DNA of 29,777 nucleotides from an uncultured Methanosarcinales archaeon (GTDB lineage: Archaea > Nanobdellota > Nanobdellia > Woesearchaeales > CAZPJY01). Where the stretch lies: positions 62,001 to 91,777 of the forward strand of contig CAZPJY010000002.1 of NCBI GenBank assembly GCA_964587045.1, read 5' to 3'. A program made the position numbers and the translations under genes. Shown one piece after another: positions 6,300-26,128 of the stretch. The notes below the pieces were generated by a model. That model was not told the origin of the DNA. It made no database searches and worked only from the letters and a program-made list of their open reading frames with translations. Position 1 is the stretch's first letter. Each line of letters begins with the position of its first letter.

Positions 6300-6642
6300 G
6301 CACTACTAATCCTCTTCTCAATTTCTTATTAGTATATACCTTTAGAGGGGACAATACAACGAACACAAGGAACAACAGAAAAATCGAGAAAAAGAGGGGC
6401 TTTTGTCTCCCTTGCGGGATTGTTAGAGTGTATCCTGTCAAGCCCCCAGCCTTGAATGGAGGCTGGACATACTGAAAAGAGACATAATCCGTGTCTTTGA
6501 AGGCGAGAATGATAGAATCTTTATACTTGGAATACAAATCAGCATCGCATTGGCAGATTGTCTTCGAATCAGCATTGACAATCTGGATGCTTAGTAGTAT
6601 AAAGATAACCATGTACCAAAGCAAATTACCGCAATTCTCCAT
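6289..6642 (-). CDS. Small membrane-anchored hypothetical protein
   Basis: N-terminal signal-like hydrophobic stretch, C-terminal hydrophobic helix and basic tail. Overlaps the stop of the upstream surface protein gene. Confidence 0.55.
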   Translation of the reverse strand: MENCGNLLWYMVIFILLSIQIVNADSKTICQCDADLYSKYKDSIILAFKDTDYVSFQYVQPPFKAGGLTGYTLTIPQGRQKPLFFSIFLLFLVFVVLSPLKVYTNKKLRRGLVVPKS

Positions 6643-8872
6643 AGAAGATCACCATGTTCGATGCGCCCTTATAACTGGCTAATCTTTTTGGAACGCGTAT
6701 CTCATAATCATAGGTACCATATGATCCCACCCAATTATCATGAATCTTGGTTACGAGAATGATATCTTCCCTATCCAGGTCATCATAGGTGTTGTCCAAG
6801 CTGTCGCTCGAATCCCACAACAAACCTGATTTAAACGGACTGAATGTGGTGGAGTTACATATTGGGATGCCGGAAATATTTTCACCGAATATTGAGAACC
6901 AATCCTCATCAATTATATCTCCAAATTTTGTGAACATTGCATTTACCGAATCGTTGAATCCGTTCATACTGAGAGCTGAGTCTATCTCATTGAAATCCTC
7001 TATTGAGGGAGCAGTATCAGTCTTTTGACCGACTGGTACAAGTGAGTCCCAGCTTATGTTCGAATCTTTGTCTGCAATATAGATATTACCTCTCAGTGTA
7101 TCTTGCCATCTCATTAAGGACAGCTTGTCCTTATCATAAATACCGATCTCACCAGATATGTTTCCATAATACACCTGCCAGGATGAGATCCAGACTGATT
7201 TGCTGATGTAGTTGTTGCTTTCAATCCATTCCTGGATAGAGCCATTCTCCTCAATAGGCGGATCTACCTCAACAAGGATTGTCGAGAGACCCATGCCTGC
7301 AATCCAGGTTACATTCAGATTCTGATATGTGCCAGCTGCCAATGTAACAGTCAAATTTCTTAAACTTGTTTGGGTGGTTGTCTCCCAGAAACGGACCAAG
7401 ACCTCAGATGCATCAGCGTCCCCAATATTGGTAATATTTGCATATACGGCAACACTATCATTCTCGACAGGATTTGAATTGTTCAACCTGATATCATATA
7501 CTAGCATATCAGGGTATCGCCCTTCGATGTTGAAACCTGAATAGTCATAACTACCAGAGGATTTACTCGTATCATTAACCTTGAAAAAGACTGGGTACTG
7601 GGCTGAGTCATTCGTGTCAATACTGATGACATAGTTGAACAGGGCCGCCTCTCCACTCTTTATCTGGCCGCCTAGTGATAGATTCCACTCAATTTTCCCA
7701 TTTGAAAAGTTGCCTCCTGTGTAGTTGAGTGAATCTGCATCTGTATACCAGATTTCCTGAGAGGGATTCACACTCCAGTTAATATCAATACCTTCATGAT
7801 AGATGGAGTCGTTGACATCAATATTCCAAGAGATGCCGGTATTCAAAATATTGAACTCAATTCGGTATCTTCTCCCACTCTTTAGGTCAAATGTTGTATT
7901 GATTCCGAACTCGGTGACGTTAGAACGGTCATATATGCCTAAACCTGTTATATCATATATGGTAATATTTGTTAGGTTTGGCAGTGTATTCCCAGCTCCC
8001 CCTCCAAACGCGTCGAACGAGGTCACATTGAACCAAAAATGTGATGAGTTCTCCTGGAGATTATATTCTCCTGAATCTCTTATATCCCAATTGTTACATG
8101 AGATATTTATATAATCCCACGCTGTGCAGTGAAGAATGCTCTCGGGGAAATGGTTCATTTTTGGAAGTTTAACTTCAGCGTTGCTAAAACTAATCTCAGA
8201 GTCATTGATGTAAAATACCGACGAGATATCTTGGATTGCTGAAGGCTTGGAACCAGTATAATTCTCAATCAGTTGGTAACGCAGTGAGGAAGTATTCTGG
8301 AAGCTAAGATTTAATATCAAAACTGAGATGCTTCCATTAGAGGTCTGAGCATCAATTAACAAATTATAAAAATTATCTCCAAGGATTGAATAATTGCAAT
8401 ATGAAAAGTTGTTTAATGGTTCACTATCATCTTGAGCCATAATGGTCAGGTGGGTATCTTGCATAGTACCAGCAATATTTTCTGTTAATATCTTAGTATT
8501 TTGGTGGACTACAGCTGTTCCATTGACCGTATTATTTTCGCCCTGTTCATTGTTGCATCGCATCTCATAATTATAAGATCTTGTCTCAGAAAAAGTCCTC
8601 TCATACCAGAATAAACCAGCTGAATCGTTAATTGTCATATTGAAATAGTCCAGACGGTCAAATGATATCATGCACACCAAGTGGGTTATATTACTATGAT
8701 TTGATAGCCTGAGGTAGAATATGAGATTATCCCCAATAAATGAGGTAAGGTTGTCTGATGTGTCCCAGGTTTCAAAATTAGGGCCAAGAGCCACGCTGAT
8801 AGTACACATCGGTGATAGGAGGATGACTACCAGCGTGGCTAAACATTTGTATATTATACGTGAGGATAACAC
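6626..8872 (-). CDS. Secreted cell-surface glycoprotein with CARDB (Ig-like) domain
   Basis: Signal peptide, more than 30 N-x-S/T sequons, CARDB pattern (PDMLV...ANITNIG...VRF...VDP...E.NN), C-terminal WQVYYGN...YDYEIRVP...FYGELR domain resembling archaeal surface proteins. Confidence 0.8.
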   Translation of the reverse strand: MLSSRIIYKCLATLVVILLSPMCTISVALGPNFETWDTSDNLTSFIGDNLIFYLRLSNHSNITHLVCMISFDRLDYFNMTINDSAGLFWYERTFSETRSYNYEMRCNNEQGENNTVNGTAVVHQNTKILTENIAGTMQDTHLTIMAQDDSEPLNNFSYCNYSILGDNFYNLLIDAQTSNGSISVLILNLSFQNTSSLRYQLIENYTGSKPSAIQDISSVFYINDSEISFSNAEVKLPKMNHFPESILHCTAWDYINISCNNWDIRDSGEYNLQENSSHFWFNVTSFDAFGGGAGNTLPNLTNITIYDITGLGIYDRSNVTEFGINTTFDLKSGRRYRIEFNILNTGISWNIDVNDSIYHEGIDINWSVNPSQEIWYTDADSLNYTGGNFSNGKIEWNLSLGGQIKSGEAALFNYVISIDTNDSAQYPVFFKVNDTSKSSGSYDYSGFNIEGRYPDMLVYDIRLNNSNPVENDSVAVYANITNIGDADASEVLVRFWETTTQTSLRNLTVTLAAGTYQNLNVTWIAGMGLSTILVEVDPPIEENGSIQEWIESNNYISKSVWISSWQVYYGNISGEIGIYDKDKLSLMRWQDTLRGNIYIADKDSNISWDSLVPVGQKTDTAPSIEDFNEIDSALSMNGFNDSVNAMFTKFGDIIDEDWFSIFGENISGIPICNSTTFSPFKSGLLWDSSDSLDNTYDDLDREDIILVTKIHDNWVGSYGTYDYEIRVPKRLASYKGASNMVIFYGELR

Positions 8873-8951: not shown

Positions 8952-9254
8952 CTAATAGTTATCTACGACATACACAAATATTGCCTTATCCTCGGAATCG
9001 ATGCGTTGGCAATTCACTTTGGTATTGAACTTTAGGTTTCTTCTCAAAAGTTTTGGAATCAGGAAATATTTTGTTGCTTCATTTTTGCCTCTGAGTGATA
9101 TTCTTGCTGGGACCTCCGCTACAGCATCGGAAAAGAGATGAATCTCGTTGAGATGTCCTTTGAGATTAAGAAATTCGCTGTTGTTGAGCAAAGTCTCCAC
9201 TACTACCTTTCGCTCATCTTGAGAATACCTTTTTGTGCTTAAAATTTTTCCCAT
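8952..9254 (-). CDS. Small conserved archaeal protein with AbrB-like swapped-hairpin C-terminal half
   Basis: RGKNEATKYFLIPKLLR...IFVYVVD resembles an AbrB/MazE hairpin. ATG at 9254 (MGKILS) is preferred over the AT-rich upstream ATG at 9344. Confidence 0.65.
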   Translation of the reverse strand: MGKILSTKRYSQDERKVVVETLLNNSEFLNLKGHLNEIHLFSDAVAEVPARISLRGKNEATKYFLIPKLLRRNLKFNTKVNCQRIDSEDKAIFVYVVDNY

Positions 9255-9421
9255 CTTTTTTTCCCTCGATATTTTCGGATGAAGATGCAAAAAATCTTCG
9301 ATTTTATCCAGAATGATTTTTAAGAATATATATTTTATCTGCATAATATAAGTATGTATGTATATTTTTCGAAATATATTTATATATCTTTTGCTTGATG
9401 TGAGTGATAATGAGATATTCG

Positions 9422-10333
9422 ATGAAAAGGAAGGTGGTTTTACATGGTCCTTCTACCTTGACCGTGTCATTACCCTCAGACTGGGTAAAAATTAATAGGA
9501 TTAAACGCGGGGATGATGTTATCGTCCAGGAGAAGGATAAGTCTCTGCTAATTTCCCCAACAAGCTTCCTGCCAAAGGGTTTGAGTGCGACGTTTTCTGT
9601 TGGCAACAACAGGCGTATAGGGCGATCTATGATAACAAGTTTCTACAGGAGTGGATATGATGAGGTAAGAATTGAATATAACCAAATTGAATTTATTGAG
9701 GATATACAACAAATCCTCTTCGAGGAAATATTTGGGTTTGAGATTGTCTCGCATACAAAAACAGAATGCGTCCTCAAAGATCTTTCTGGAGAGGGTATCC
9801 AAGCCTTCCACATTGTTCTAAGAAGGGTATGGTTCCTCCTGCTTGACCTGGCAACGGATTTGTTCAATGGTATAAAAAATAGGGACTCAAACCTATTGAA
9901 TACCATGTCTGTAAGGGAAAAGAGCATTAACCGTCTTACTAACTACTGTATTAGAACCATGATTAAACAGGGAGAGCATGATTATCATAAGTTGATGGTA
10001 TACTACCGTTTTGTTAGAAGTCTCGAAGAACTGGCAGATTGTTATAAGGATTTCTCACTGTACATTCTGAAACAAGCGGAAATCAAACCCTCACGTGTAA
10101 TATTGAGGTTGCTTAAGGGGACCAATGAACAACTAACGCTATTTCATAGCATCTTTTACAAGTATTATCCGGATGATGCAGAAAGGCTGAATAGGGAGAC
10201 CCAGTTGTTATACCAGCGGATGGTTCCCCTATTCAATTCTGGAATTGATGCTTACCAATTGCATTTCCTATTCACAATATGCAAGGGAATCAGGAACCTT
10301 ATATCGACCATTGTGGAACTACAGATTAAATGA
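9422..10333 (+). CDS. AbrB-domain PhoU-like phosphate uptake regulator (archaeal type)
   Basis: MKRKVVLHGPSTLTVSLPSDWV (AbrB N-terminus), YRSGYDE, GFEIV, followed by PhoU-like helical repeats (LEELAD). ATG at 9422. The ORF track extends it to 9404. Confidence 0.85.
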   Translation: MKRKVVLHGPSTLTVSLPSDWVKINRIKRGDDVIVQEKDKSLLISPTSFLPKGLSATFSVGNNRRIGRSMITSFYRSGYDEVRIEYNQIEFIEDIQQILFEEIFGFEIVSHTKTECVLKDLSGEGIQAFHIVLRRVWFLLLDLATDLFNGIKNRDSNLLNTMSVREKSINRLTNYCIRTMIKQGEHDYHKLMVYYRFVRSLEELADCYKDFSLYILKQAEIKPSRVILRLLKGTNEQLTLFHSIFYKYYPDDAERLNRETQLLYQRMVPLFNSGIDAYQLHFLFTICKGIRNLISTIVELQIK

Positions 10334-12286: not shown

Positions 12287-12389
12287 TTTTTTATCCTAAT
12301 ATCCTCGTGAAAGTATTAAGTGTCAATATGATTTCATCAATTGGGGAAGTCTGGCTAGAACTTTCTCTAGATATTAAGGGGGTGAAAAA

Positions 12390-12566
12390 ATGAAGAAAGT
12401 AATAGTGGTAACTATGATAGTGGTTGCCTTGTTGGTGGGAGCCTTTGCTATTGGTGTAATAAGCTCGGACAGCGCTGAAGATGTTACATATGATATGTTT
12501 TTGAACAAAGAGTTTGTCACTCCAGTTCTCGCAATGGATCCTCCGGTCCCACCTTGCTGCACTTAA
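12390..12566 (+). CDS. Small secreted peptide precursor, 58 aa (MKKVIVVTMIVVALLVGAFAIGVISSDSAEDVTYDMFLNKEFVTPVLAMDPPVPPCCT), not in the ORF track
   Basis: Translated by hand. Strong archaeal RBS GGGGGTGA just upstream, classic MKK + hydrophobic signal peptide, fills the gap between two minus-strand genes. Confidence 0.8.
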   Translation: MKKVIVVTMIVVALLVGAFAIGVISSDSAEDVTYDMFLNKEFVTPVLAMDPPVPPCCT

Positions 12567-12573
12567 TATATTT

Positions 12574-14967
12574 TTAATTTCCATTTTTTTCCAACTGAGT
12601 GATATATGAAATACCTTGAAGTAGTGCATAATCAGCTAGAACATAAGTGCAACTTCTCAAAGTCTGATGATTGCTAAGGGGTATTTTTTTTATAAAATAT
12701 GGCTGGAAATCAATTCCGTCTTTTTTATCGACAATGTAATTATTTTCCATTAGAGAAATTAATGTTGCCTTGGCAAGGTTGAGATATTCATTGTGACCTG
12801 TCGCTTGAAAGAGCCTTCCAAAAGCCCAAAATGCAACGGCTGCTGCGCCGGGATCCATAATTCCCTCCTTCATATCCATAAAAGGTATCTTTGAGCTTGG
12901 TAGATGTGAGATGTAATAAGCCGTTGCCTGCTCTGCTCGATCCAGGTACCATGGCTTGTCTTGATTCATTGCATTTTCATAACCGGATAAAAGACCCAGT
13001 ACTGCAAGCATCTGCCCTCGTGCAAATCTTCCTTCCTGACCGTGCTGGGACTTTATGTAGCCTTTATTAAAGTCATAAATCTGCCTAATCAAGCCTTTTT
13101 CCTCCCCATCTGATTCGAAGAGCTTTTGGGAAAGTGTTCTATAATGGTTTTGGAGAATGGAGTACAACTCTTCTTTCCTGATGGGATTATCAGTCTTTTT
13201 ATATTCCCACCATAGTGGTTCGGTCAGATTCCAGAAATTGGCTGATGTAATCCTCTTATCGTCTATTTCATTACGAATGTCATCATAGGTTCTCTCGATT
13301 AAAACCCCTGGAGATTTATACAATGTTCTGATGAGGTCATCATTGATATCTGAAATTAACTCAAATGCGTTTTCATCATGAAGCATATCGAAGGCTGGAT
13401 GATATGCAAAATAGAATCTCGTAAGCTCTACTGTGACCTGTTTATCCCTAATGATACCATTTTTCCATCTTGTCGCCCAACGCATCCAGTCTGATCTTGA
13501 TTCTTGGGACGGTGCTTGCTCATAACCTTTCCAGACCATTCCCGCAAAGATGCCGTCGGTCCACTGCTTACCATGACCTTTGTATGCACTGACATTTGTT
13601 GTGACCCAAGGGTACTGGATTGGCTCGATTTTCTCCTCAAAAGAGAGCCAAGTTTTTAATCTGTCATATAGCGAATGCTCAAAATTGTGCAATGATAGGA
13701 TAAATCCTGTGTCATTGGGATAATCTTGCTTGTATGTTTGAATGAGCCTGTCACTATTCTTAATTACCTTATCTTTTTCCAAGTAAATTTGCTCGAAAGA
13801 AGGAGGTGGTGCTGTGTATTCTTGAACCAATATTCCGCCTCCGACAGCTACGCAAAGTGATACTAATGGTATGAGAATGGCCTTTCGAAGCCTCCTTTTC
13901 TTCAGAGTTTTCTCCCGATCCATACGTGCTTCCATGTCCCTGCTGATTTTTATTTTAACCCGTTTGTTCTCTAAGTAGGAAGAAAGGTCATTGATTGCCT
14001 CATTTGCGTTATGATACCTCATCTGGGGATTAATGTCTAGTAACTTTAAATTCGTCATTTCGAGCGTTGAGAGATCCTTGAGGTAAGGATTCAACTTTGA
14101 AGGTCGGGGGAAAGCTGACATTTCAATTATGTTGGAGATCTCAACTTCAAGCCTTTCATCAGAAGTGTATCTTATTATTGATTCAAGGTCTTTGAATTTG
14201 TCCGGATCCCTCCATTGATACTTTGCTATTAGGCTATGTAAAATTGGATGTTCTCCAGTGAGAAGTTCATAGAACATAATTCCGGATTGGTATAATTCTG
14301 CTGATATCTCCTCCTCAAGGGTGAGGTTCGTTTTGCCCATAATTATCTCAGGAGCAGTGTAAATGTGTTTCCCAACCAGTATCCGGCCTTCCTTTGCGGT
14401 CAGAGTCCTTAAGAAATCTCTGCTCTCTTTAACCAGGTCAAAATCGATAATTTTAATCGATTTATCCTTCGTGATGATTATATTCGAGGATGTCATATCC
14501 CTATGCACATACCCATTTTCATGGAGACTGCGTATGCCTTTCAGTATCTCAAGCATTATATTAGCGCTCTCAAGAACGGATTTCTCAAAGAATTCTTTAG
14601 TGATTTCAATTCCAGCAACTCTTTTCCCGACATGATTGAATGAAGGTCTCTTTTTTATCCAGGTCTCAAGGGATTCGCCCTCAACCAACTCCGAAATCTG
14701 ATAATAGAACCTGTCCCTCTCATTGAACTCATAAAGGGTGGCGAGGCGAGAGTCCATCTTTGTTGATTTGAATGCCTTCGGCAGCCCGGCAATAATTCTT
14801 TTATTCCTTGAAGATTCAAGGCTTTTCGGTATGATTTTTAGGGCCACCTCCCTACCCGGCACGGTTCGGTCCTCGGCCCGGAAAACCGCTCCGTACCCTC
14901 CTTTACCCAATAGCTCGATGAGCAGATACTTATCTATAGTCTCCCCGACGAAATCACCATAACCCAT
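12574..14967 (-). CDS. Transmembrane Ser/Thr protein kinase with extracellular GH88-like (alpha/alpha)6 barrel domain
   Basis: GKGGYGAV, VALK, HRDMTSSN, DFD, YTAPE, then KKRRLRK + one TM helix, then WTDGIFAGMVW, FARGQ, DPGAAAVA, ADYALLQG resembling unsaturated glucuronyl hydrolase motifs. Confidence 0.85.
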   Translation of the reverse strand: MGYGDFVGETIDKYLLIELLGKGGYGAVFRAEDRTVPGREVALKIIPKSLESSRNKRIIAGLPKAFKSTKMDSRLATLYEFNERDRFYYQISELVEGESLETWIKKRPSFNHVGKRVAGIEITKEFFEKSVLESANIMLEILKGIRSLHENGYVHRDMTSSNIIITKDKSIKIIDFDLVKESRDFLRTLTAKEGRILVGKHIYTAPEIIMGKTNLTLEEEISAELYQSGIMFYELLTGEHPILHSLIAKYQWRDPDKFKDLESIIRYTSDERLEVEISNIIEMSAFPRPSKLNPYLKDLSTLEMTNLKLLDINPQMRYHNANEAINDLSSYLENKRVKIKISRDMEARMDREKTLKKRRLRKAILIPLVSLCVAVGGGILVQEYTAPPPSFEQIYLEKDKVIKNSDRLIQTYKQDYPNDTGFILSLHNFEHSLYDRLKTWLSFEEKIEPIQYPWVTTNVSAYKGHGKQWTDGIFAGMVWKGYEQAPSQESRSDWMRWATRWKNGIIRDKQVTVELTRFYFAYHPAFDMLHDENAFELISDINDDLIRTLYKSPGVLIERTYDDIRNEIDDKRITSANFWNLTEPLWWEYKKTDNPIRKEELYSILQNHYRTLSQKLFESDGEEKGLIRQIYDFNKGYIKSQHGQEGRFARGQMLAVLGLLSGYENAMNQDKPWYLDRAEQATAYYISHLPSSKIPFMDMKEGIMDPGAAAVAFWAFGRLFQATGHNEYLNLAKATLISLMENNYIVDKKDGIDFQPYFIKKIPLSNHQTLRSCTYVLADYALLQGISYITQLEKNGN

Positions 14968-15093: not shown

Positions 15094-15166
15094 AGCCCCG
15101 TGGTGTAGCGGTCAATCATCCAGCCCTTTGGAGGCTGGGACCTCGGTTCGAATCCGAGCGGGGCTA
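15094..15166 (+). tRNA. tRNA-Gln (anticodon TTG), intronless, CCA not encoded
   Basis: Acceptor AGCCCCG/CGGGGCT + discriminator A, anticodon arm CAGCC-CTTTGGA-GGCTG, T-arm CTCGG-TTCGAAT-CCGAG. The A1-U72 pair is typical of archaeal tRNA-Gln. Confidence 0.97.
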
Positions 15167-24683: not shown

Positions 24684-25061
24684 TTAATTCTTCTTGATAT
24701 TCTTGAAGGTCTCCACCAGGTCAATGATATACTTGCCTTCTGAGACCCTGATGATGAGCGGCTCCTTCTTGAACAGGTTCACCAAGTCCAGCTCGTACTT
24801 GCCGGGCTTGAGTATGCGAACCGCCTCGAACTCCAGGACTATCGACTTGTCCCTGTCTATTTGGTTGCCGATGATGTCGTAGACGTCCTCCTCAATCTCC
24901 TTCTTCTCCTTCTTGGTGAGCTTGGAGACCTCCTCCTGGACCTCTTTGAGCCTCTCTGGCTTGATGAAGAAGAAGAGCTTACCGCCGCAGCTACATCCCT
25001 TCAGAATCTCCTGCGCCCCGTCATCATAGAGCTTGTTGCATCTGACACATTGGTGCGGCAT
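24684..25061 (-). CDS. oapC: Origin-associated protein C (DUF2072 Zn-ribbon)
   Basis: MPHQCVRC...ILKGCSCGGKLFFF, VRILKPGKYELDL, GKYIIDL. Third gene of the conserved triplet. Confidence 0.9.
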   Translation of the reverse strand: MPHQCVRCNKLYDDGAQEILKGCSCGGKLFFFIKPERLKEVQEEVSKLTKKEKKEIEEDVYDIIGNQIDRDKSIVLEFEAVRILKPGKYELDLVNLFKKEPLIIRVSEGKYIIDLVETFKNIKKN

Positions 25062-25077
25062 TCGTACACCCCAAAAA

Positions 25078-25467
25078 CTAGCGCTTCCGTCTCCTCTTCG
25101 TCATGTCATCGATGAAGAGCTGGACCTTGTTGGGATCGCTCTTGATCTCCTTGACGAGGGTGGAAGGGCCTATGATCGTGAATCCCCGCCTGTCCCCCAG
25201 CAGGAACTTGAGCAGTCCTCCCTTGATCTTCTCCCAAAGCGCACTGCTTCCGCTCTGCGGGTTGAAGACCCAGGGCTCTATACCCTTGAACTTGTTGTTG
25301 ATCTCCTCCATGGTCTTCTTGATGAGCTCTGTCTCCTCTGTTTTGGTGAGGCGGCCTTCGAGGAGGACGATTTTGTTCTCCTTGACGATGTCGATTATCT
25401 TCCTTATCCTCTTCTGCGAGGGCAGCTTCTCAATCTCGAAGTATGGCAGGAACTGGAGAGTTATCAT
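25078..25467 (-). CDS. oapB: Origin-associated protein B (DUF2073)
   Basis: RIRKIIDIVKENKIVLLEGRLT..EE..LI..TM.EI...FKGIE, GFTIIGP. Confidence 0.9.
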   Translation of the reverse strand: MITLQFLPYFEIEKLPSQKRIRKIIDIVKENKIVLLEGRLTKTEETELIKKTMEEINNKFKGIEPWVFNPQSGSSALWEKIKGGLLKFLLGDRRGFTIIGPSTLVKEIKSDPNKVQLFIDDMTKRRRKR

Positions 25468-26102
25468 TTTGCGATCTTGAACAGTGCTTCATAAAACTTG
25501 TCGATGTCCGTTCCGTACTTGGCCGATATGCCCACGACGTCATACTGCGGGAACGCGGCCTTGATCTTCTTGATGTCGGACTTCTTCAGGTCCACCTTGT
25601 TTGCGACCAGGAGCACGGGTATGTCCCTGGCCTGAAGGTTGCCTATGATGGTTATGTTGACTTGGGAGTACGGATCCTTGGTCGAGTCGAGCACGACTAT
25701 CACCACATCCATGTCGTCCAGCCACTTGATGGCGTCGATTACGCCCTTGGTGGCCTCCTTCGCCCGGTCTTTGGCCTGCTTCTCCTTCATGCCGGCCTTA
25801 ATGAAGTCCTCGTAGTCGATCTTCGTCGCAATGCCTGGTGTGTCGACCAGGTTGAAGGAGAGCTCCTTGTTGCCGCTCTTGATGTTGATCTGCTCCTTTA
25901 TCTGGATCTCCCTGGTCTCGTGCGCGATGCTCGAGGTAGAACCCATGACATCTTCCTCTCCGAGCCAGTCCTTGCAGATTTTGTTGGCGAGAGTGGTCTT
26001 TCCGCCGTTCGGCGGGCCGTAGAGGCCCATCTTGATGTGTCTGCTCTTCTTGAATAGGTTCTTGAAGAACTTCTGGATAAACCTGTTGAACAGCCCTTTC
26101 AT
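25464..26102 (-). CDS. oapA: Origin-associated protein A, Era-like GTPase
   Basis: G1 GPPNGGKT, HETRE, G3 DTPG, RAKEATKG, DPYSQVN, G4 NKVD, ISA. ATG at 26102 (ORF track 26120). Confidence 0.92.
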   Translation of the reverse strand: MKGLFNRFIQKFFKNLFKKSRHIKMGLYGPPNGGKTTLANKICKDWLGEEDVMGSTSSIAHETREIQIKEQINIKSGNKELSFNLVDTPGIATKIDYEDFIKAGMKEKQAKDRAKEATKGVIDAIKWLDDMDVVIVVLDSTKDPYSQVNITIIGNLQARDIPVLLVANKVDLKKSDIKKIKAAFPQYDVVGISAKYGTDIDKFYEALFKIAK

Positions 26103-26128
26103 AGGTTTTTCAAAGAACAAAGCAGTAT

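Follow-up and report, generated by a model that had tools for sequence, protein, structure and literature searches.

A gene for a small, probably secreted peptide paired with a receptor-like kinase: a candidate signal–receptor module in small-genome archaea

In a 29,777-nt stretch of archaeal DNA (the window), a 58-aa peptide precursor gene lies tail-to-tail with the gene of a receptor-like protein kinase. The pair recurs in divergent relatives, members of the precursor family share a C-terminal tail motif, and the domain fused to the kinase is a GH88-like barrel that has lost catalytic residues. Because the pairing is repeated in distant relatives with different peptides, the peptide is likely that kinase's signal and the two likely form a lineage-specific signal–receptor pair. 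Our preferred reading, which we consider probable, is that the ORF encodes the precursor of a ligand for the neighbouring receptor-like kinase. A sequence-only reading of this DNA had recognized the tripartite layout of the precursor, which stands, and had overlooked the adjoining kinase–barrel gene, likely the clue to the peptide's job. Throughout, G-numbers denote genomes (G000 is the window's) and L-numbers loci.

A peptide precursor gene in a low-GC island

The sequence-only reading had reported an unlisted 58-aa ORF with a ribosome-binding site (RBS), a signal-like start, an acidic pro-region and a Pro-rich tail, and we read the DNA as it described (Table 1). The predicted protein opens with MKK, continues with hydrophobic residues 4-24 (best 15-residue Kyte–Doolittle mean, 3.08) and ends in PVLAMDPPVPPCCT before the stop codon. 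The 4-nt spacing of GGGGGTGA is the commonest GGTGA spacing in this genome's long ORFs (15 of the 60, among 762, that carry GGTGA), and G-rich sites resembling GGGGGTGA lie 5′ of most homologous precursors; beyond the RBS, no common motif was seen by eye in the regions 5′ of the precursors. T-rich tracts also lie 3′ of most homologous precursors.

The ORF is almost certainly a real gene. The alternative, a frame that arose by chance or a decayed gene without a product, is very improbable: it would fit the lack of a sequence homologue, a tail that departs from the family motif and the weak codon-usage score (−0.99, as low in 3 of 113 coding windows and that high in 5 of 31 non-coding windows, a measure that leaves coding and non-coding frames unseparated), yet when the 287-nt intergenic stretch was shuffled 20,000 times, ORFs of 50 aa or more arose in 1,971 cases, 43 of them with an RBS as well, 6 with a signal-like start and none with both. 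The ORF moreover stands at exactly the family position; its RBS, start, hydrophobic region and Ala site are all intact, as is the partner kinase it faces. A contig of a public salt-marsh DNA run equals 12386-12536 with zero differences, the last nine codons and the stop lying outside its coverage. Two minus-strand ORFs present in the window, 12291-12629 and 12374-12562, are probably shadows, given the conserved sense-strand gene in relatives.

Table 1 Features of the peptide–kinase module in the window
Feature	Position	Strand	Remarks
Small conserved protein	8952..9344	-	Divergent from regulator; probable start near 9254
Regulator, AbrB/MazE-type DNA-binding plus PhoU-like domain	9404..10333	+	Present in 11 of 13 loci
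Orphan, 655 aa	10319..12286	-	Divergent from peptide gene; distant homologues in 4 other loci
Ribosome-binding site GGGGGTGA	12378..12385	+	4 nt 5′ of ATG
Peptide precursor gene, 58 aa	12390..12566	+	Predicted signal ~residues 1-24, acidic pro-region, Pro-rich tail
Predicted mature tail MDPPVPPCCT	12534..12563	+	After V-L-A, the putative cleavage site
T-rich tract between convergent genes	12567..12592	+	Likely terminator
Receptor-like kinase, 797 aa	12574..14967	-	Stop 7 nt from peptide stop, tail-to-tail
tRNA-Gln	15094..15166	+	Edge of low-GC island holding module

The gene sits in an island of GC 0.39, as against mostly 0.50-0.57 for whole contigs, in a 1.6-Mb genome; relatives' genomes measure 0.4-2.7 Mb. 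The tRNA is not a general neighbour, with one tRNA among 13 loci scanned. The AbrB/PhoU-type regulator is likely the output of the module, and six further paralogues of it lie elsewhere in the window's genome. The orphan is present in 5 of the 13 loci; a possible kinase-like (APH) fold, suggested by the likeness of its G005 counterpart to APH-like kinases (TM up to 0.55; features 0.94, on a low shared count), is a lead only. The small conserved protein is 52% identical to its counterpart in G473, and counterparts were recognized by eye in G256, G252, G168, G265, G473 and G500. PADLOC matches were generic kinase-domain matches.

Other genes of these regions deserve mention. A large secreted CARDB-domain protein lies beside the module in the window (6626-8872, −) and in G005 (L047:1-3732, +), with C-terminal ends similar by eye; it was not seen at other loci. 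Elsewhere in the window's genome (C15, ~35200-38500; L022, L025), two tandem genes encoding kinase, membrane helix and unknown outer domain converge on another AbrB/PhoU-type regulator, with no small partner ORF; regulators of this kind may serve as outputs for kinases in general within the lineage. The window also carries a GTPase, OapB and OapC (Pfam) at 24684-26120 (−), which are origin-associated genes, so a replication origin may be near.

The peptide–kinase pair recurs in divergent relatives

A word-index search with the peptide gave one candidate, the peptide itself, and phmmer against 1.84 billion representatives added two long repeat proteins that we judged spurious. In 100 related genomes the peptide found weak hydrophobic matches only (best E 0.009), none of 599 candidates from genome contigs held up, and the sole metagenome locus that matched proved to begin a peptidase-like protein of 442 aa that is unrelated. 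No precursor paralogue was found in the window's genome. In that genome, two pairs of small pilin-like ORFs of 80-93 aa (C1, ~72500-76700) have Cys-rich C-termini and, by eye, a class III signal-like start. Pairwise, the match between the window peptide and one relative is limited to the signal region, which counts against the ligand–receptor reading. Single-sequence searches with the barrel or the orphan returned this genome only, though G005, described below, was in the set; this first look was therefore insensitive, and the counts given here are lower bounds.

A kinase-domain search of 401 genomes of the order had as its best outside match a full-length homologue in G005 (24% identity, E 1e-30). 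Convergent on that kinase, 31 nt apart, lies a 75-aa ORF with an RBS, a signal-like start, V-S-A and a Pro-rich two-Cys tail, and the gene order is that of the window: peptide, distant orphan homologue (E 2e-5) and regulator (33%). Barrel profiles matched in 9 of 401, 12 of 400, 3 of 7 and 10 of 301 genomes (overlapping samples), amounting to 20 distinct genomes, 7 of which were dropped before counting: G137, with a stand-alone GH88; G325, G092, G410, G518 and G489, with weak matches and no kinase; and the unpublished G111. The 13 loci kept, the window included, span ten families and two orders of the same archaeal class; they are kin rather than independent trials, and counts over them are descriptive. 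A kinase domain is visible in 11, the loci of G363 and G399 being cut by contig ends. No barrel relative was found in viral contigs (0 of 129).

We scored a locus as paired when a convergent ORF of 40-140 aa with a hydrophobic start had its stop within −30 to +60 nt. Outside the window, 11 loci include their 3′ end, and the rule held at 10 of these (G005, G256, G252, G168, G363, G329, G265, G399, G473 and G500); the loci of G329, G265, G399, G473 and G500 were read after the pairing prediction had been made. The same rule picked out 17 of 607 long ORFs of the window's genome, the window pair included, and none of 11 kinases without a barrel (none of 7 after removal of the controls from unpublished genomes, namely G182 twice, G370 and G111; nothing else claimed here depends on unpublished genomes). 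Under an earlier, stricter rule (ATG only, −15 nt) the genome figure was 9 of 569; the rule was relaxed to admit G500, with controls treated alike.

The remaining locus, in G016, has a kinase–barrel without a convergent ORF, which speaks against the ligand–receptor reading. This protein (L087:6014-10614) is 1101 aa long with an extra C-terminal domain, and its gene lies, in the same orientation, 3′ of one that by eye is nucleotide-cyclase-like; ~4.6 kb downstream is the gene of a secreted protein, rich in Gly and Pro, that has a PEF-like anchor. The kinase of G292 runs to the edge of its contig, and the precursor stands at the end of another contig, beside an orphan and a regulator; it is the best match (E 2.8e-4) of a profile built from six other precursors.

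The kinase is fused to a GH88-like barrel

The 797-aa protein comprises a Hanks-type kinase (aa 16-271; Pfam Pkinase), a basic stretch, one membrane helix (~aa 364-380) and a C-terminal GH88-like (alpha/alpha)6 barrel (~aa 395-797). This receptor-type Hanks layout of kinase, single helix and outer domain is shared by 9 of the 10 others with a visible kinase domain. Basic residues stand ahead of the helix in the kinase–barrels, an arrangement that would keep the kinase inside and turn the barrel outwards, to the side on which an exported peptide would arrive; five members have an RRxF motif, which we take to be like Tat signals. The G256 kinase is without a membrane helix, a point against the ligand–receptor reading, and the helix of G473 is weakly hydrophobic. 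In G256 (L057:6681-8606) the helix is missing through an apparent in-frame loss of ~30 residues, at a locus whose partner has an Ig-like domain.

The window kinase has a Gly-rich loop, ALK, HRDxxxxN, DFD in place of DFG, and APE. Also against the ligand–receptor reading, the kinases of G252, G168, G473 and G500 are without the activation segment and part of the C-lobe. These four kinases (at L058, L059, L103 and L104) keep the catalytic Asp and DFG/DWG and make up a miniature or pseudo-kinase subgroup; the orphan gene is absent at their loci. The G168 kinase–barrel is frameshifted in the barrel, a further point against the ligand–receptor reading. At another locus (G243, L038:622-1365), a lytic-transglycosylase-like gene (by eye) and the gene of a membrane kinase whose outer domain is a helical repeat point away from each other.

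The window barrel matches unsaturated glucuronyl hydrolases in sequence (3wiw, E 1e-4) and in language-model features (0.95), and is 15-18% identical to GH88 unsaturated glucuronyl hydrolases (UGLs; PDB 3wiw, 1vd5, 2fv0). Its model (pLDDT 76) has 3wiw as best Foldseek match (E 3e-10, TM 0.62), with unsaturated glucuronyl hydrolases leading. The functional residues of UGL named in PMC4528949 are Asp149, His193, Asp88 and Trp42. Of these the window barrel keeps Trp42; Asp149 is replaced by Ala, and Asp88 aligns to Glu or Leu. When 11 barrels were aligned with the stand-alone GH88 of G137 (G265 and G399, too distant, were left out), His193 was missing in all 11 and Asp149 was kept, by eye, in about 3. 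The UGL-type (alpha/alpha)6 barrel is present, and the full catalytic set of Asp88, Asp149 and His193 occurs in none of the aligned barrels. Because catalytic residues are lost, the barrel is likely a binding domain and not a hydrolase.

The barrels are 12-21% identical to the window's, a low value that is expected if receptors diverge with their ligands, and their pocket residues vary widely. Two further points weigh against the ligand–receptor reading: the barrels of G265 and G399 belong to the family only weakly (best pairwise scores, 13.5 and 11 bits), and most of the barrel tree lacks resolution and so does not show co-variation with the tails. The tree joins the two CC-ending loci, G000 and G265 (96/95; 84/92 minus three long rows); both are long branches, and we did not count this grouping. 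It also places the G137 GH88 with the G500 barrel (80/90). That stand-alone enzyme (L060) carries the catalytic motifs and is encoded within a run of genes for polysaccharide degradation, on a contig of 4.4 kb; it may be a bacterial contaminant or stand close to the donor family.

The GH88-like fold, the sugar-pocket Trp42 kept in the window, Asp149 kept by eye in about 3 of 11 barrels and the lack of a partner peptide in G016 would all suit a barrel that senses sugar, namely an unsaturated uronate derived from host or biofilm polysaccharide. The small gene would then be a co-inherited output under the control of kinase and regulator, for instance a gene for an antimicrobial peptide or a secreted effector. 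We regard this as improbable: pocket residues that differ so widely are unlike those of sensors for one sugar, no polysaccharide-use, immunity or export genes were seen in the loci read, and the tail-to-tail linkage persists across two orders.

Class III and IV lanthipeptide synthetases also place a kinase before an (alpha/alpha)6 barrel, and the sequence-only reading had proposed a pheromone or RiPP-like precursor. Of the two, the pheromone idea gains from the recurring kinase–barrel pairing and the tail motif, whereas the RiPP idea loses ground, since the loci read are without a modifying enzyme or dedicated transporter (or dedicated protease). That the ORF is a RiPP precursor, with the kinase–barrel as an enzyme resembling a synthetase (kinase plus LanC-like cyclase), is highly unlikely. 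The domain order, the Cys in the tails and weak scores of the kinase part on the LanL and LanKC models are what it has in its favour, yet these scores fall far below the cut-offs (49 bits versus 650 for LanL, 44 versus 575 for LanKC) and come from the kinase part only. An N-terminal lyase is also missing, the kinase beginning at residue 16; in most members a membrane helix parts the two domains; GH88 enzymes are what the barrel matches best; most loops are without Ser/Thr; and the precursors have export signals in place of RiPP leaders.

Precursors share a variable Pro-rich tail

The sequence-only reading had suggested looking in related archaea for a conserved C-terminal motif behind a variable middle, and this is what we found once homologues were sought by position rather than by sequence. 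There are twelve precursors (58-137 aa). They are not N-terminal fragments of longer proteins, the case that the same reading had named as its undoing: 11 of the 12 have a stop codon, and the twelfth runs for 98 aa to a contig end. Six of them, from four families, end in C-x3-P-G-x-P-[DN]-x-C: CAHPPGWPDPC (G005), CHHEPGYPNDC (G168), CEHPPGTPDPC (G363), CDFSPGEPDPC (G292), CNPPPGEPNPC (G329) and CEIPPGYPNPC (G500). G473 and G256 have a ten-residue loop between Cys, and the G252 tail is Pro-rich with no Cys. The vicinal CC noted in the sequence-only reading does not characterize the family: it ends 2 of 12 precursors (the window and G265), whereas two Cys 9-10 apart occur in 8 and no Cys in 2. 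Between the Cys, 5 of the 8 two-Cys loops hold no Ser/Thr; the window tail has one terminal Thr.

By its sequence, MDPPVPPCCT is a short, deviant member of this variable Pro-rich tail family: it is Pro-rich with terminal Cys, and the family's first Cys and PG are absent, which tells against the ligand–receptor reading. The tails had no Pfam or NCBIfam family match (the G500 precursor was outside the scan). A DNA pattern drawn from the six motif tails matched, among 171 genomes, the module peptide of G500 only. In viral contigs there were 18 motif loci, of which 17 translated to the motif and looked like chance frames in GC-rich DNA. Ahead of the tail, the middles differ in length and are mostly unalignable, though by eye G363, G292 and G500 have a longer type in common. 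Just before the tail, 5 of 12 precursors (G000, G005, G252, G168 and G473) have an Ala and then D, E or M, which in the window is VLA-MD.

Two partners depart from this pattern and count against the ligand–receptor reading. That of G399 ends in a hydrophobic anchor rather than a free tail (PEF plus hydrophobic plus basic, which we take to be PEF-CTERM; no NCBIfam match was found), and that of G256 has an Ig-like domain (Pfam Glucodextran_B, E 2e-4) before a two-Cys tail. Both fit better with a small protein that is a dedicated kinase partner kept on its own cell, by an uncleaved membrane anchor or surface sorting, and not a released signal. Acting as an inhibitor or co-receptor, such a tethered partner could plug or tune the barrel and come off in response to a cue from outside; alternatively, it could be a surface tag read by contact. 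The gene pairing fits it equally well, G363, G292 and G500 have long beta-rich middles with no Ala site before the tail, and no dedicated protease was seen in the loci read. We hold this explanation to be unlikely, if worth serious attention: a second signal-peptidase-like Ala site stands right before a tail of 10-35 residues in 5 of 12 precursors, the middles vary in length and are mostly unconserved, as pro-regions do and are, and, judging by gene orientation, the small gene has a divergent or separate promoter position of its own and is not co-transcribed with the kinase.

Discussion

If the 58-aa ORF does encode a ligand for the neighbouring kinase, the precursor would be exported by Sec and its signal cleaved, and a second cut after V-L-A would free MDPPVPPCCT, oxidized to a disulfide; in most relatives, this bond would form a Pro-rich loop of 9-10 residues. 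The peptide would enter the pocket of the outward-facing barrel, and the inner kinase domain would change its activity and act on the AbrB/PhoU-type regulator, perhaps via the orphan. With tails that differ between lineages, each lineage would have a channel of its own in which to sense self, kin or density. We see about even chances for the wider proposal that small-genome symbiotic archaea have a peptide-hormone system of their own, with a secreted Pro-rich peptide, mostly disulfide-closed, a single-pass Ser/Thr receptor kinase whose sensor is a dead glycoside hydrolase, and one dialect per lineage. If true, it would provide a genetically defined archaeal cell-to-cell signal and a case of a glycoside-hydrolase fold reused as a peptide receptor. 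The candidate signal and candidate receptor are both named by genes, in 12 natural pairs with different tails, so the question of binding can be tested without culturing the organisms.

Gram-positive bacteria use peptide quorum-sensing cassettes such as ComC/ComD, AgrD/AgrC and nisin/NisK. Like these, the module sets a small variable precursor, with a C-terminal ligand, beside a membrane receptor kinase and a regulator, and the precursor–receptor gene linkage of ComCDE/agr systems is seen at 10 of 11 testable loci and in the window, if the kinase is indeed the receptor. Unlike them, it has a Hanks-type Ser/Thr kinase, a GH88-derived barrel as sensor, convergent genes and an archaeal host, with no histidine kinase, response regulator, dedicated ABC exporter or AgrB; no histidine kinase or receiver domain was found among the 31 window proteins scanned. 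No TPR family match was found among the window proteins scanned either, and in place of the cytoplasmic TPR receptor of RRNPP (Rap/Phr-type) systems, the protein encoded next to the peptide combines a membrane helix with a GH88-like barrel. Unsaturated glucuronyl hydrolases of GH88 share the fold of the outer domain and, in the window copy, Trp42; they differ in that the module's barrel is fused to a kinase, has Ala for Asp149 in the window and lacks His193 in 11 of 11.

The bacterial receptor kinases PrkC/PknB/StkP and PknD, as portrayed in passages of a review (PMC6213207), likewise have the kinase inside, a single membrane helix and the sensor outside. The PASTA repeats of the former are absent here (NF033483 scored 109 bits against a cut-off of 450, from the kinase part only), and the module's sensor is not a propeller as in the PknD type. 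For bacterial receptor-type Hanks kinases those passages give peptidoglycan as the ligand, and in the review no word beginning with 'peptide' occurs (PMC6213207). By their defining features, the module's parts fall outside the ComCDE/agr, RRNPP, lanthipeptide, PASTA-kinase and GH88 families.

Among archaea, passages of a 2026 paper on Haloferax volcanii DFS and QarABC quorum sensing describe a secreted signal with a kinase-based response, as proposed here; unlike the module's, that signal is chemically undefined ('yet-to-be-defined'), the pathway is a two-component histidine kinase one, and no peptide gene is involved (PMC13464002). A survey of CPR/DPANN quorum-sensing genes worked from homologues of known systems (PMC7567580) and so could not see this module. 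We found no description of the module in the literature searched, including of GH88 with a protein kinase in Woesearchaeota, though supplementary tables of DPANN genome surveys could list the kinase fusion. The logic of peptide and receptor is known; a peptide, receptor-like kinase and regulator module of small-genome archaea is apparently undescribed.

The CLE/CLV1 type of plant signalling combines a signal peptide, a variable pro-region and a short conserved Pro-rich C-terminal ligand with a single-pass Ser/Thr kinase. The likeness to these plant peptides and their receptor kinases (PMC6749341) is an analogy only: the module has no LRR ectodomain and no sequence relation to the plant system, is prokaryotic, and keeps the genes of ligand and receptor adjacent. 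If the peptide-hormone reading is true, the module would be a prokaryotic counterpart of plant peptide–receptor-kinase signalling.
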